DNA of 47,034 nucleotides from a virus (lineage: Duplodnaviria; Caudoviricetes): the IMG/VR virus record IMGVR_UViG_3300035670_000361, positions 1 to 47,034 of that record; one strand, written 5' to 3'. Below, one piece after another: positions 4,232 through 43,538 of this stretch (its first letter is position 1; each line of letters begins with the position of its first letter). Below the pieces are notes generated by a model. That model was not told the DNA's origin, did no database searches, and saw only the letters and a program-made list of their open reading frames with translations. The position numbers were made by a program, and so were the translations under genes.

Positions 4232-5785
4232 ATGCTTGGTATGGAGATCGGTCCCTGGCTTGATGAACTAAAGACTATTGATGCGGGGAATGGCTACGGC
4301 ACTTCGACTTCTCGTTATTCATTTGCCGCCACTCGGTTAAGGTTTCCCACCATTCAAAGAGCCGGTCACGTTACCAACACTTTCTATATCGGCGAGTTTG
4401 TCTTTGCCAGTCCAGACTACGCTGTCACGGATCCCCGGTTCGCCTTCCCCACTTTCTACAGCCCGTTTGCCGGGGGTGAGACCGCTGTGGCCAATAACAT
4501 TACCATCGAGGGCGTGTCTATCGAGGTAGGCGGTACATGGTATGAGGCTCCCCCGGCGTCCTTCCCTGTGGTTATGGATCCAGCTCTGGTCCCAGGTGCG
4601 CTTCTTGCGGCAATCCCTGTTACTATCCCTGCCAACACACTCGTCACTGGGCGAGTGGCCTACACCTTCACAGGGAATTTGCCAACTGTCACCCCAAATA
4701 CTGCGATAGGACTCGGCGAAGGCAATATCGGCTCAACTTCAAGTCTTGCCGCCAAGTTGATGGATGGTAGTGCCGTTGGTAATTCAGCCGGCCACTCCGA
4801 CGTATATGCACCTTGCTTTATGGTGGCAAAAGGAGGGGATGGGAGACCCTCCTTTATCATTGTAGGGGATAGTATCGGCTACGGACAAACTTCTTCACCA
4901 GCCCAACTGTCAAGTGCCCGTGGTGAGAGCGGATACATCCCACGGGGTTTGGACGACAACGCTACCTCCCTCAGGTTGGCCTATTCCAACTTCTGCATCC
5001 CGGGGCAAAATCCAATTCAGTGGAAAACTCGAGCTAATTGGGCGAAGAAGTTGGACTTGCTGAAGATGGTCTACGACCAACATGGCGCCTGGCCCTTCGA
5101 TCAGGTGATCAGCCAGCACGGCACTAATTCCTCCACCGCTACCTATCTGGGGGCGGGCAATCTTAGAGAGAGCATGGAGACCTATTTCTCCCTGATTACC
5201 ACAGAGTGGGGCAAGCCGATTACGCAAGTCGAGATACTCGCTCGCCCAACTTCAACAGACGGATATGCTACGCTGGTCAATCAATCAGTGTCCATCTCAG
5301 CTGACTATCCCACCGGCACACTTTGGCTCTTCAATGCCGACATGGGTGGGGCGAATGGATTGGGTGACCCGGCAGCCTACTTCCGCGCCGGAGGCTATAT
5401 CGAAGACAGTATCGCTCCCTGGCGTTACGGGTCTTATGATTTGATCAATGAACGAGATAAGTTGGCAATCAGACCTTTTAGTACCACCGTCGCCTCAGCC
5501 TATACTAGCGGATCAACCATCAGCCTAACAGCTGCCCCAACACTGGGAGAGGCACTTGCCATCGGAAATACCAGTCCCTTCTATTGCTATGTAACAGCTG
5601 TTACGGGCTCCGGCCCTTATACAGTAAGTTTCGTACAGACTGGATCGACAAAGGCCATTTCCGCAGGGGAGACGGCCCGTGCAGTGCCTCATGACAGTTC
5701 GGGCTTACATCCTTCACCTCTGGCGGAAGTGGCCATCTATGCCGCCGCTATCGTGGATTGGAAGATCGCACGAGGCTGGGTATAA
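4232..5785 (+). CDS. SGNH/GDSL hydrolase-domain virion protein, putative head fibre
   Basis: Block I VGDSIGYG, block III HGTNS, block V GLHPS; beta-rich N-terminal part. Confidence 0.75.
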   Translation: MLGMEIGPWLDELKTIDAGNGYGTSTSRYSFAATRLRFPTIQRAGHVTNTFYIGEFVFASPDYAVTDPRFAFPTFYSPFAGGETAVANNITIEGVSIEVGGTWYEAPPASFPVVMDPALVPGALLAAIPVTIPANTLVTGRVAYTFTGNLPTVTPNTAIGLGEGNIGSTSSLAAKLMDGSAVGNSAGHSDVYAPCFMVAKGGDGRPSFIIVGDSIGYGQTSSPAQLSSARGESGYIPRGLDDNATSLRLAYSNFCIPGQNPIQWKTRANWAKKLDLLKMVYDQHGAWPFDQVISQHGTNSSTATYLGAGNLRESMETYFSLITTEWGKPITQVEILARPTSTDGYATLVNQSVSISADYPTGTLWLFNADMGGANGLGDPAAYFRAGGYIEDSIAPWRYGSYDLINERDKLAIRPFSTTVASAYTSGSTISLTAAPTLGEALAIGNTSPFYCYVTAVTGSGPYTVSFVQTGSTKAISAGETARAVPHDSSGLHPSPLAEVAIYAAAIVDWKIARGWV

Positions 5786-8528: not shown

Positions 8529-9191
8529 ATGACCACCAACACTGAACAGAAGTTTTCCCCACTGGACCTCAAGGAGGTTTCCGAAGAGGGCGTGTTTGAG
8601 GGCTATGCTTCAAAATTCGGTGACCGCGATCAAGGCGGTGACACGGTTATGAAGGGCGCCTTCAAGAATTCCCTGAGGATCCGCTCCTCGAAGTCGATCA
8701 AGATGCTCTGGCAGCATGACTCCTCCTATCCCATCGGGATCTGGGAGAAAGTCGAAGAGGACAGCACAGGCCTCCATGTCAGGGGTCGACTTCTTACCTC
8801 CGTCCCCAAAGCGAAGGAGGTCTATGAACTGATGAAGGCCGGGATCATCGACGGCCTCTCAATCGGCTACCGCACGATCAAGGCTCTTCGAGACGACGCT
8901 ACTGGCACTCGTCAACTGAAGGAACTTGATCTGTGGGAGATCTCGCTGGTCACTTTCCCGATGCTGACCTCAGCCACCGTTACCTCGGTGAAAGGCGATT
9001 GGACCAAACGAGACGTGGAACGTGTACTGCGAGACGCAGGCATGCCCAACGCAATGGCTGTGAAGTTGATTGCGGGCGGCTGGGATGCTGCCAATACCGC
9101 CGGCGGACAGGGCGACCCTGACGACGGGCTCAATGATCTGGCCAGACAGTTGGCTCAGATGAACGAAACCCTGAAACGGAGACTGTCATGA
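8529..9191 (+). CDS. Prohead protease (HK97 family)
   Basis: FEGYAS, MLWQHD, DGLSIGY, LWEISLVTFP. Confidence 0.97.
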   Translation: MTTNTEQKFSPLDLKEVSEEGVFEGYASKFGDRDQGGDTVMKGAFKNSLRIRSSKSIKMLWQHDSSYPIGIWEKVEEDSTGLHVRGRLLTSVPKAKEVYELMKAGIIDGLSIGYRTIKALRDDATGTRQLKELDLWEISLVTFPMLTSATVTSVKGDWTKRDVERVLRDAGMPNAMAVKLIAGGWDAANTAGGQGDPDDGLNDLARQLAQMNETLKRRLS

Positions 9192-10525
9192 AACATCAAC
9201 AATTCGCCCACCCTGCCGGTCCGCTTGAGATCAAGGATGTCACGGGTGGCTCTGGCGATGACATCAAATCGCCGGATACCATCGAGATCAAGAAAGGTCT
9301 CGACGCCTTCTCCAGGACCCTCGACGCCTTCATGAAGAAGACCGACGATGAATTGGCGGAGATCAAGAAGTCCACCGACGGCAAGACTGCCGACGCTGTG
9401 ACCCAGGCGGAGATGAAGAAACTCACCGACGCCCTTGACGAGCAGAAGAAACTGGTCGACTCGCTTCGCCTCGCGAACAATCGACCCCACCTGATGCTTG
9501 CCGACGGCACCAAGGCCCAGCTCACCGACGAACAGGTCGAGCACAAGACGGCCTTTGAGGGCTGGTTCCGCAAGGGCTCCGGTGAAGACGGACTGGGCGA
9601 ACTCCAGAAGAAGGCACTCTCGGTCGGCACGGATCCTGATGGCGGTTACACGGTTCCTGTCCAGATGGAAGCCACCATTGATCGGGTCATCACCGAGGTT
9701 TCGGAGATGCGCCAGATCTCCCGGGTCATCCAGGTCTCGACTGCTTCCTACAAGAAGCGCGTGTCCATGGGCGGCGCCTCCAGCGGCTGGGTCGGTGAGC
9801 AGTCGGCTCGCCCGAATACCAACACGCCGACCGTGGACGTTCTCGAGTTCCCGGTGATGGAACTCTACGCCAATCCCTCGGCAACCCAGTCCATCCTGGA
9901 TGACTCGGCGATCAGCATTGATCAATGGCTCGCCGACGAGGTGGCTCTTGAGTTCGCCCAGGAAGAAGGTGCAGCTTTCGTCAACGGCAACGGTGCGGCC
10001 AAGCCCCTCGGCTTCCTCCAAACCAGCAAACTCGCCAATGACAGCTGGGCCTGGGGCTCCCTCGGCTATATCGCCACGGGCGTCTCGGGCGGTTTTGCCG
10101 ACAGCTCGTCGGATCCGGGCGCCGAGACCACGAACATCGTGGATCTCGTTTATGCCCTGAAACCCGCCTTCCGCCGCAATGCTCGCTTCACCATGAACCG
10201 CAAGACGGTTTCGACCCTGATGAAGCTTCGCGACGCCGACGGCCGCCAGCTGTGGTCCTCGGGACTTCGCGAGGGTCAGCCCGACAGGCTGATGGGTTAT
10301 CCGATCCATGAAATGGAGGACATGCCCGATATCGGCGCTGACTCCTATTCCGTGGCCTTCGGTGATTTCAGCCGCGGCTACATCATCGTTGACCGGATCG
10401 GCATCCGGGTTCTCAGGGACCCCTTCTCGGCGAAGCCCTACGTCCAGTTCTACACGACGAAGCGCACGGGCGGCGGCATCGGTCACTACGAGGCCATCAA
10501 GCTGCTGAAGTTCGGCACCTCGTGA
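9188..10525 (+). CDS. Major capsid protein (HK97 fold with delta domain, GTA g5-like)
   Basis: Coiled-coil N-terminus, DGGYTVP, ELYANPSATQ, FGDF, RDPFSAKPYVQFYTTKR. Confidence 0.97.
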   Translation: MKHQQFAHPAGPLEIKDVTGGSGDDIKSPDTIEIKKGLDAFSRTLDAFMKKTDDELAEIKKSTDGKTADAVTQAEMKKLTDALDEQKKLVDSLRLANNRPHLMLADGTKAQLTDEQVEHKTAFEGWFRKGSGEDGLGELQKKALSVGTDPDGGYTVPVQMEATIDRVITEVSEMRQISRVIQVSTASYKKRVSMGGASSGWVGEQSARPNTNTPTVDVLEFPVMELYANPSATQSILDDSAISIDQWLADEVALEFAQEEGAAFVNGNGAAKPLGFLQTSKLANDSWAWGSLGYIATGVSGGFADSSSDPGAETTNIVDLVYALKPAFRRNARFTMNRKTVSTLMKLRDADGRQLWSSGLREGQPDRLMGYPIHEMEDMPDIGADSYSVAFGDFSRGYIIVDRIGIRVLRDPFSAKPYVQFYTTKRTGGGIGHYEAIKLLKFGTS

Positions 10526-41351: not shown

Positions 41352-41380
41352 ACTATAATCTCAAATGAGACCCTTGTCAA
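41352..41380 (-). promoter_or_regulatory. sigma70-type promoter with palindromic spacer
   Basis: TTGACA-17 nt-TATAGT; TCTCA-AA-TGAGA at 41359-41370. Confidence 0.8.
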
Positions 41381-41386
41381 CAGGAG

Positions 41387-41704
41387 TTATGCTTCCGGAG
41401 ACAGTTGTTTGATCGGCCTCAGGTAATAGGTCGCCGGGTGACTTCCGTCCGTTACGATATCCCATCCCAGGTCCTTCAGTCTGTCTCTTCTCTTGATGCA
41501 GGATCGAATAGCCAGAGGACCATCCATGGGCTGAGAGGAGTCAGGCAGTCGGGAATAGATTTCACCGGCCAGTTCCTCAGCGGTCAAACCGCCCCGCTCT
41601 TTGATCAGTCTCACAATCATGGAGAGCGTGGGAGGCAGAACTCGGTAAAGAGCTTCAAGCTTAACCTTACTAGTAAGATGGCTCTGGCAAACGGGGCACT
41701 TCAT
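41387..41704 (-). CDS. CxxC plus winged-helix putative regulator
   Basis: MKCPVC, LTAEELAGEIY, RLKDLGWDI...YYL. Confidence 0.6.
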   Translation of the reverse strand: MKCPVCQSHLTSKVKLEALYRVLPPTLSMIVRLIKERGGLTAEELAGEIYSRLPDSSQPMDGPLAIRSCIKRRDRLKDLGWDIVTDGSHPATYYLRPIKQLSPEA

Positions 41705-41874
41705 CTTAGTCCTTTCTTGCCACAGGATCGGCAAACCCCGGTCTTCGTTTTGAGGTTGATGTTGGACCACCGGTTTCGCTTCAGTGCCTCTTCGGGCTTG
41801 TCATGCGGATTTATTTTCAGCTCCCTATCACAGGACCTGCAAGTGGCGGCTACTACGGTTTTATTTTTGGCCAT
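41701..41874 (-). CDS. 57-aa zinc-finger protein (below the ORF-track cutoff)
   Basis: MAKNK...CRSC...CRSCGKKGLR; ATGA overlap. Confidence 0.6.
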   Translation of the reverse strand: MAKNKTVVAATCRSCDRELKINPHDKPEEALKRNRWSNINLKTKTGVCRSCGKKGLR

Positions 41875-42559
41875 ATCTCAAGACCTTGGCTGCATCTGGA
41901 TTGAGGACTCTTCCGCTCACTCGCCGATAGGCATTGAATACCACATGCCCGATTCTGCTGCGGCTGTCCCGGTAAATCTTGGTGTTGGAGCTCATGACTG
42001 CCAGATAGGCTTCTCGCCAATCCCCGAAAGCTATCTCCCCCTCCTCATCCAACTCAGAGCTGATAAACAGGGGATATCCAGCTAGCCTTCCCGGAACTCC
42101 CCAACACGGGGCAGCTTGGTGTAGGAACCGGCCGCAGCTATCCTTCAGGTTCTTGACGGTCCTCTCCGTCTTGGCGGAAATCACAAAGGTTCCCCTTTGA
42201 CGATACTCCGGAGGCAGCATGTAGATCAGGTCCACAATCGAGTCGACGGTCAACTCCTCAGCCGACAATCCGTCATAGGCGTTCGGCTTGAGTATGTGTC
42301 CCAGAAAGAGCTTGTCCTCCCTCTTCCGGAAACTGGACTCTATCTCCTCCTCTATAGAGGCGGCTACTTTCCTTGCCGAGAAGGAGCACAGGAAACGCAG
42401 TGGCTTTATCACTGTGGTTTCCGATGATCCCTCTGGAGTCCAATCCGTAAGCTGTGTACTTCCCAGCTGCCTCATAAGAGAGGGGACGTACTGATTGACT
42501 ACTGGCAAATCAGCTCTGCCATCGGGCCCCTCAGTATAGAAGGTGTGGTCAACCATCAT
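41861..42559 (-). CDS. Shortened paralog of the HK97-fold major capsid protein
   Basis: IVDLIYMLPPEYR, LKDSCGR, RLAGYP, IAFGDW, YRD align with the C-terminal half of the MCP at 9188-10525. Confidence 0.85.
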   Translation of the reverse strand: MMVDHTFYTEGPDGRADLPVVNQYVPSLMRQLGSTQLTDWTPEGSSETTVIKPLRFLCSFSARKVAASIEEEIESSFRKREDKLFLGHILKPNAYDGLSAEELTVDSIVDLIYMLPPEYRQRGTFVISAKTERTVKNLKDSCGRFLHQAAPCWGVPGRLAGYPLFISSELDEEGEIAFGDWREAYLAVMSSNTKIYRDSRSRIGHVVFNAYRRVSGRVLNPDAAKVLRYGQK

Positions 42560-42560
42560 C

Positions 42561-42707
42561 TCACTCCATTAGAGCGTAGGCGGTTAATCCGGCAAGGCAG
42601 GATCCCAGGAAATACCCTATGCGGGTGGTTCTGGGCTGTTCCCGGAAAGTACGGAGTGCCAGGTAAATGGCCCAGACACTCCAGAATGCTGCGAGAGTTG
42701 GGCTCAT
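42561..42707 (-). CDS. 48-aa protein with two hydrophobic segments
   Basis: MSPTLAAFWSVWAIYLAL...IGYFLGSCLAGLTAYALME; fills the gap in the operon. Confidence 0.5.
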   Translation of the reverse strand: MSPTLAAFWSVWAIYLALRTFREQPRTTRIGYFLGSCLAGLTAYALME

Positions 42708-43303
42708 CACCCATCCCTCAGACACATAACCCAGCCGTCCTTGTCCTGATGGGTGGCCAGGTAGTCGGTCGGGTCGAAGAAGTCACCGTCCAGCAGGTTG
42801 GCTTCCATCAGGACCGTCAGGATCGCGCCGTTGACCGAGACTATGTTGACCCCCGTACCGTGAATAGCCGGTCGCGGTGGGCCGTCTTCCCGAGGATGAT
42901 AGGCATGGTCGAACACCACGTCCGAGTAGTGTTTCTGCAGTTCGAGGGAAGCCTTTGCCCATAGGATATAGGGATTGACCTCGCCCTCATGCACCAAGGC
43001 TTTCTCAGCCCACAGTTCACCGACGGACTTCCAGGCAGACTCTACGGGGCGAGTTGCCAGGAAACCGGTCACCGCGCCGATCTCGTCGGCCATACTGGGA
43101 TGAGCAACCTTCGCCAATTGGGTGGCAAGCTCCATAATCCTGGCCTCGTGGCCCCTCAGGCTGATGACGATACGATCCGTGAGCGGTGAACGAGTGTGGC
43201 CGAACTCCCCGGTATGGTAGAGGGAGAACAACAGCTTGGATAGCTTGATCTCGTCCTCCGACATCTTGGGTAGCCCGTTCAGGATATCCTCGAGGCTCCT
43301 CAT
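42707..43303 (-). CDS. Hypothetical protein (198 aa)
   Basis: ATGA overlap; in operon. Confidence 0.7.
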   Translation of the reverse strand: MRSLEDILNGLPKMSEDEIKLSKLLFSLYHTGEFGHTRSPLTDRIVISLRGHEARIMELATQLAKVAHPSMADEIGAVTGFLATRPVESAWKSVGELWAEKALVHEGEVNPYILWAKASLELQKHYSDVVFDHAYHPREDGPPRPAIHGTGVNIVSVNGAILTVLMEANLLDGDFFDPTDYLATHQDKDGWVMCLRDG

Positions 43304-43479
43304 TTCGCCACGCCCTTGATGGTGACCTCGATGAACTCCGGCCAGGCGCCGTTGATGCCGAGCAGCTCCTTGCGGACATAGGCCGTCGGCATGGGCGACG
43401 TGTCCTTGTCGGCATCGAGCGCCTGGTACTGGAGCATGTTCTTGGTTTCTTTCTTGAAAGGCAGCTTGACGGTGATCAT
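43300..43479 (-). CDS. 59-aa hypothetical protein (below the ORF-track cutoff)
   Basis: MITVKLPFKKETKN...AYVRKELL...PEFIEVTIK; GAGGA RBS; first gene after a promoter. Confidence 0.7.
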   Translation of the reverse strand: MITVKLPFKKETKNMLQYQALDADKDTSPMPTAYVRKELLGINGAWPEFIEVTIKGVAK

Positions 43480-43508: not shown

Positions 43509-43538
43509 TTTATACGATATGACGTTGTGCCAGGTCAA
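43509..43538 (-). promoter_or_regulatory. sigma70-type promoter
   Basis: TTGACC-18 nt-TATAAA. Confidence 0.55.

Follow-up and report, generated by a model that had tools for sequence, protein, structure and literature searches.

The window considered here, a stretch of 47,034 nucleotides, is a single virus record (IMGVR_UViG_3300035670_000361) with a completeness rating of 100%, whose ends share a repeat of about 200 bases; read cover of the contig comes from its likely source run and from a second run, both of one study. On the minus strand, positions 41861-42559 hold a small capsid gene, hereafter the mini-capsid gene, with an uninterrupted frame of 232 codons. A Shine-Dalgarno-like GGAG (42564-42567, minus strand) precedes the first ATG by 4 nt and the second (42556) by 7 nt, a spacing that makes the second ATG the probable start and a 231-residue protein the likelier product. 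The protein matches Pfam PF05065 (Phage_capsid; E 1.4e-24, residues 61-228) and phrog_10, and scores above the cut-off for TIGR01554. It belongs to the HK97-fold superfamily by its P- and A-domain core, seen in the PF05065 match and in a model that aligns to HK97-fold capsids at Z 15-19; databases label such genes 'major capsid protein'. The genome's own full-length HK97 major capsid protein (MCP) is encoded on the plus strand at 9188-10525, downstream of the prohead protease gene (8529-9191). The original prediction of an intact 232-residue frame on the opposite strand, more than 31 kb from the head genes, is thereby confirmed: the mini-capsid gene lies 31 kb from the portal and protease genes, and its slot is the same in relatives. 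BLASTP aligns it to the MCP in the C-terminal part only (33% identity over 128 columns). Five of the seven motif pairs earlier proposed between the two proteins hold in the alignment; the pairing of DWTPEG with GWVGEQ is wrong, since W40 pairs with E220 of the MCP, beyond the E-loop, and that of GPDGRADLPV with DPDGGYTVPV is doubtful, FYTEG aligning instead to WFRKG of the MCP (F7/W126, G11/G130) in the last delta-domain helix.

The mini-capsid operon, entirely on the minus strand, is headed by a sigma70-type promoter-like site (TTGACC-N18-TATAAA, 43509-43538) recognized by eye. The element TTGAC-N17/18-TA, likewise seen by eye and unlisted by a consensus scan, stands before the operon in eight of the nine genomes listed, the exception being L006. 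The first gene (43300-43479; 59 aa) is conserved in the clade and the second (42707-43303; 198 aa) is also conserved, neither having a family; a small hydrophobic gene (42561-42725) then forms the upstream edge of the variable slot that holds the mini-capsid gene. The stop of the latter is overlapped by a gene for a 57-residue CxxC..CxxC protein (41701-41874), 71% identical to the slot-filling gene of L005, a relative devoid of the mini-capsid gene. Codon adaptation of the mini-capsid gene is 0.68, the fourth lowest of 37 genes, compared with 0.82 for the MCP gene. Terminator-like T-run hairpins occur at the upstream slot edge of several relatives (L004:4420-4445, L005:4822-4845, L006:4486-4515, L007:4515-4545; z -2.0 to -3.9), directly preceding the mini-capsid gene in L006 and L007, and there is none in the window. 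Promoter-like site, operon position, low codon adaptation and hairpins suggest that expression would be early and modest, the timing being read from position and motif only.

Other features of these genomes may be recorded here. A strong sigma70-like site immediately downstream of the operon (41352-41380, 11 of 12 matches) heads SprT-like and endonuclease V genes, and in MW202777 an acyl-carrier-protein-like gene is inserted in the same early operon (L001:2542-2823). The lowest codon adaptation of the 37 genes belongs to a 517-aa esterase-like gene (phrog_8480) at 4232-5785, in the terminase/portal interval. The segment 32198-36953 encodes a dCMP deaminase, a thymidylate-synthase-like protein, a nucleotide kinase, a pyrophosphohydrolase and a 287-aa protein of no family, 78-87% conserved in relatives; it looks like a pathway for modified-thymine DNA. 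No integrase was detected among the 55 window proteins scanned against PHROGs, which suggests that the clade carrying the mini-capsid gene is probably lytic. This clade has tails resembling those of gene transfer agents (GTAs). Among cultured isolates, the closest matches of the tail hub are Rhodobacter phages (44%) and those of the polymerase Brevundimonas phages (54%), so that an alphaproteobacterial host would fit, without proof; the related genome OP947159 carries a putative 'Desulfofustis' label.

Residues 2-121, 133-139, 148-152, 158-171, 185-219, 266-273 and 287-305 of the MCP are without counterpart in the window protein, which begins at the F/YxRxG motif, close to where the delta domain ends. 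The missing parts comprise the delta domain and most of the N-arm (2-121 and parts of 133-171), the 35-residue E-loop (185-219) and an A-domain insert, as well as the P-loop (266-273); the loss of the delta scaffolding domain and the large deletions of the E-loop region had been noticed earlier and are borne out. The L007 orthologue is without the same blocks but keeps 266-273, so the P-loop loss is peculiar to the window copy. The MCP block 185-219 corresponds to about residues 131-165 of the MCP chain of the Rhodobacter GTA (RcGTA), a stretch that contains residues 148-152, part of the RcGTA extended loop according to the accessible portion of the structural report (PMC7296036). The mini-capsid protein accordingly differs from functional MCPs in having neither an extended E-loop nor a delta/scaffold domain with full N-arm, and in being encoded apart from portal and prohead protease.

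AlphaFold2, supplied with a 93-row alignment of 21 short proteins and 72 capsid core stretches, returned a compact HK97 core (pLDDT 92.8, pTM 0.86) in which a short hairpin, strands 34-38 and 45-53 linked by a six-residue turn, replaces the E-loop. The confidence of this model is partly borrowed from the family, since single-sequence prediction reached a pLDDT of 37 and was discarded, and the Atlas model has a pTM of 0.61; the Atlas search with the protein returned generic capsid clusters only. Foldseek ranked RcGTA capsids first (E 6e-15), and the highest query TM-scores listed were those of prohead-I chains of D3 (0.71) and HK97 (0.69). In VIA-align superpositions, residue 1 of the model falls on residues 76 and 81 of the HK97 and D3 proheads, positions presumably inside the delta domain, so the protein resembles a free, unprocessed subunit. 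Lattice assembly needs the E-loop, the N-arm and the delta domain, and the mini-capsid protein would be a free subunit unable to enter the lattice.

The lineage of the gene was traced by searches and trees. In a word-indexed search the best full-length matches of protein P0001 were Ruegeria-type MCPs, including P0007, which matches RcGTA g5 at E 3e-186; an exhaustive search gave another MCP, P0037, as the best full-length match, and this one is outside the trees. When eight mini-capsid proteins were compared by BLAST with about 140 full-length MCPs, the top match was in the GTA group in all eight cases, and own-clade MCPs ranked 15th to 96th (the distant L142 counted). All 11 family members are nearer to Rhodobacterales GTA MCPs than to MCPs of their own clade. 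A quick tree of 65 rows gave the family no placement and put a long branch next to it. More careful trees placed it: after 16 long or redundant rows had been dropped and 10 others brought in (59 rows), the 11 mini-capsid proteins, P0115, P0066, P0044 and seven GTA MCPs were united at 99/93, and with 47 rows, long and context-less ones removed, support for the grouping with GTA MCPs was 98/92. A clade of mini-capsid proteins and own MCPs was rejected by the AU test (p=0.012), which rules out a duplicate of the phage's MCP and removes support from the link to that protein implied in the original prediction. Among 40 diagnostic columns at which GTA and own MCPs are fixed and different, 21 favour GTA, 8 the own MCP and 11 are tied; the window copy alone is split, six to six. 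On this sequence evidence, the family is sister to the Rhodobacterales GTA capsid proteins.

No MCP at least 60% identical to P0007 was present among 50,697 phage records, the best listed reaching 49%. Of the 121 genomes surveyed from the donor order, 103 carry a full-length match and none yielded a mini-type gene; the matches listed all lie in open frames of at least 323 aa. The simplest reading of these comparisons is capture from a host GTA cluster, and a phage with a GTA-like head, unsampled so far, is a possible donor. The ancestor of the clade would have taken the capsid gene from the GTA cluster of its alphaproteobacterial host, with losses following later. The tree indicates gene flow from GTA to phage, with a change of role.

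In MW202777 (L001), in the IMG/VR phages L006, L007 and L008, and in L225, a phage contig binned into a metagenome-assembled genome (MAG), an intact orthologue directly follows the same small hydrophobic gene. Other genes fill the slot in OP947159, G001, G002 and G003 (G007, with flanks identical to G001, was counted together with it). The mini-capsid gene is therefore present, within one clade, in six of the ten distinct genomes that cover the slot, the window included. The four relatives that are without it have records of 43-46 kb, similar in length to those of the carriers. Protein searches added P0035, P0036, P0134 and three L001-type 90% clusters, 20 of whose 21 members are full-length at 261 aa, the remaining one being on a 513-bp contig. 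In the L001-type proteins a 33-aa acidic C-terminal tail (L001:4402-4499), present in 20 of 20 full-length members, is overprinted on the next gene. Protein P0012 (376 aa, on a 1.3-kb contig) consists of an L001-type protein in its first 142 residues and of unrelated sequence thereafter, and is a chimera or recombinant.

These distributions bear on the idea that the protein serves the phage's own MCP, be it as shield or chaperone of nascent subunits, minor capsid protein or size modulator. The own MCP and the GTA MCPs share a core at 53% identity, and capsid sensors are modelled, in the available portion of the Avs report, to see only monomers, so that a cover over the A-domain would hide the MCP. 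Such a partnership is nevertheless improbable: the mini-capsid lineage is not that of the own MCP, the gene is missing from four of ten relatives with records as long as those of the carriers, its codon adaptation is low, and in L006 and L007 a terminator-like hairpin stands just upstream of it. The roles of size modulator and minor capsid protein are disfavoured.

Selection was examined in pairs of relatives. The dN/dS ratio of the mini-capsid gene is 0.16 for L006/L007 and 0.21 for L008/L225, which places the gene under purifying selection in these two pairs; pairs that include the window copy give 0.35 and 0.53 with dS near saturation. The mini-capsid proteins of the window and of the L007 phage are 34% identical, the MCPs of these two phages 79%; mean identity is 43% among mini-capsid proteins, and over the same columns 79-80% among GTA and own MCPs. 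Most of the positions conserved in the mini-capsid proteins are core residues of the whole family, a pattern that fits selection on shape better than on a lattice interface. About 25 positions are conserved in the mini-capsid proteins yet unlike the consensus of GTA, own and other MCPs, and residues conserved throughout capsids are swapped (W to S, Y to H). Diversification of the A-domain was considered as a sign of an arms race (0.19 against 0.06-0.10 in 20 L001-type copies); the signal is weak and was rejected, since own MCPs likewise vary more in the A-domain.

The original prediction had named decay in relatives as the outcome expected of a pseudogene. Neither stop nor frameshift interrupts any of the six syntenic copies, and the ratios given above argue against decay, the window copy being comparable only near saturation. 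That the gene is a relic, at least in the window genome, is highly improbable, even though this copy is the most eroded of the family, with the longest branch (1.71), an extra P-loop deletion, the DPF..KP motif lost and a lone GAWTC site: the frame is open behind a ribosome-binding site, core residues are retained and the model is confident. Deletions, model, dN/dS in relatives and synteny together support the earlier notion of an assembly-defective HK97 fold kept under selection.

GAWTC occurs once in the window, where 66 sites would be expected, and GASTC 99 times. The one site (41951-41955) lies inside the mini-capsid frame, as originally noted, and had been taken as a hint of recent acquisition. 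For the family this is unsupported, since the gene is syntenic across the clade, its members average 43% identity and the copies of L001, L006, L007, L008 and L225 contain no GAWTC; a recent allele swap in the window genome alone is possible. In a sequence free of avoidance a site would be expected in about every 700 bp; the lone site therefore cannot separate chance from such a swap, and its use to date the gene was rejected as uninformative. AACGTT, ACATGT, ATCGAT and ATGCAT are also absent from the window and CGATCG occurs once; all these gaps are common to MW202777 and in part to OP947159. The L225 contig, whose MAG is assigned to Gammaproteobacteria, contains seven GAWTC sites within 13 kb, which shows that members of the clade differ in avoidance.

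Similar trimming recurs in seven singleton proteins of 244-322 aa (P0115, P0066, P0044, P0119, P0096, P0049 and P0142), which start near the same helix; the delta domain is missing from them, as is some or most of the E-loop. In the tree they fall with Rhodobacterales GTA MCPs, in a sphingomonad group and on two further branches, i.e. in about four GTA-like lineages. Some of these context-less singletons may be decayed genes or assembly errors. Viral scans with P0001, with its upstream neighbour and with P0115 yielded no relatives; that with P0066 gave six loci, of which the five listed contained full-length genes for GTA-type MCPs, one of them apparently with a frameshift. The recurrence indicates a capsid-related role, and it weakens the proposal that the fold is an exapted scaffold for some partner, of host or phage, that has nothing to do with the sensing or assembly of capsids. 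The latter would account for the roughly 25 positions peculiar to the mini-capsid proteins and for the acidic tail of the L001-type copies, but neither a catalytic motif nor an added domain is seen, and we regard it as quite unlikely.

Descent from a GTA MCP is explained more directly if the protein is a dominant-negative cap for shells of GTAs or GTA-like prophages, joining a capsomer through its A/P surfaces and, with no E-loop to offer, stopping assembly. Targets would be common, to judge from the 103 of 121 donor-order genomes with a full-length match, and a low dosage would be enough. Few cells make GTAs, which counts against such a function. So does sequence divergence: an assembly poison should track its target closely, whereas the mini-capsid proteins are 30-40% identical to GTA MCPs (80% among themselves), diverge fast and have changed residues that are conserved across capsids. 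We consider this mode of action unlikely and retain it as an alternative because, in the accessible text on the satellite capsid protein Ccm, a homologue of 24% identity co-assembles (PMC8569155). In addition, an NLR-like lysis system of Caulobacter may be set off when GTAs are produced, as far as the available part of that report goes (PMC13236601), and a link of the mini-capsid protein to GTA-coupled lysis via LypABC is conceivable on the same partial source. Were the protein an inhibitor of GTA assembly encoded by a phage, it would be evidence of a cost that GTAs impose on lytic phages.

Few phage proteins are sensed as commonly as capsid proteins, and sensors that read shape are hard to escape by mutation. 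The explanation that we tentatively prefer, with considerable doubt, is that the GTA-grouped, trimmed HK97 core acts as an early, low-dose, assembly-dead decoy that binds host capsid sensors without firing them. In the available portions of the relevant report, Avs7, Avs8 and Avs10 recognize MCP monomers by the shape of the A-domain, to which they bind, and Avs7 makes additional minor contacts with the P-domain and E-loop; the sensors are triggered by core folds and modelled to see monomers only (PMC13581612). For Thoeris, the accessible text states that binding by ThsB1 requires the E-loop and that its partner ThsB2 is recruited through the P-loop; an MCP with a mutated P-loop is bound by ThsB1 and does not recruit ThsB2 (PMC12578639). 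Binding and firing may on this partial account use separable surfaces, and a protein that is small, early, fast-changing and optional, with the core shape preserved and the loops shed, fits a competitive antagonist.

The decoy would work as follows. Host RNA polymerase would transcribe the gene early and at modest dosage. Its product, perhaps already in a form tolerated by host sensors given its start as a host-encoded capsid, might keep the A/P-domain shape that sensors grip, without the loops that complete activation, and might thus block them before the real MCP appears late. Two points from the cited sensor work limit the scheme, within what the available text covers: since core folds trigger Avs sensors, a bare core might fire them instead of blocking them, and ThsB1 binding needs the E-loop, so a ThsB1-type sensor should not bind the mini-capsid protein. 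The erosion of the window copy, with its six-to-six split of diagnostic columns, and the quick tree that left the family unplaced also count against the decoy. It is possible, though rather doubtful, that the domesticated GTA capsid gene of the host has repeatedly been taken up by alphaproteobacterial phages, which have removed its delta domain and E-loop and employ what is left to antagonize capsid-sensing immunity, early and by competition. If true, there would be a class of pattern-mimic anti-defence proteins with a host-encoded capsid as their source, and a non-activating capsid mimic would be the missing counter-move to shape-reading sensors. In the accessible portions of the literature searched, which includes few subscription papers, and of a 2026 review of counter-defence (PMC13728456), no capsid-mimic anti-defence protein was found; the same literature yielded no GTA-derived truncated capsid gene in phages, within the same limits.

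Among known systems, the best match of solved structure is the RcGTA MCP, Rcc01687/g5 (PDB 6TB9, 6TSU), ranked first by profile (E 6e-45) as well as by Foldseek, and superposed on the model by VIA at Z 17.2, with 29% identity and an rmsd of 3.3 across 200 residues. Unlike it, the mini-capsid protein is phage-encoded, alone outside the head cluster and without delta domain, most of the N-arm, E-loop and A-domain insert. The phage's own MCP is of the same fold family (TIGR01554, phrog_10), with the C-terminal likeness noted above, but is of a different lineage, belongs to a late operon and has full assembly elements. Encapsulins (Z 14-15 to the model by VIA) and T4 gp24, repurposed or paralogous forms of the HK97 fold, also use it outside the main capsid role; these proteins build shells or vertices and, unlike the mini-capsid protein, keep the E-loop. 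That a mobile element may repurpose a capsid homologue is already known, and the mini-capsid protein is outside both the Ccm and the functional MCP families. Ccm of SaPIbov5 is alike in being a capsid homologue from another element used in conflict; it keeps delta domain, N-arm and E-loop, fills the pentamers of the shell, and is satellite-encoded and aimed at a phage, according to the available part of its description (PMC8569155). The mini-capsid protein is a core that should not assemble, carried by a complete phage that encodes a polymerase and head proteins of its own, which sets it apart from size redirectors of the Ccm type. With the MCPs that trigger Avs7/Avs8/Avs10, Dsr1, CapRel and Thoeris it has in common the A-domain that Avs7/8/10 bind, on the partial evidence of the sources cited above. 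A non-activating capsid mimic was absent from the accessible part of the literature searched (few subscription papers); those MCPs are activating ligands, whereas the mini-capsid protein is proposed to be a non-activating one.
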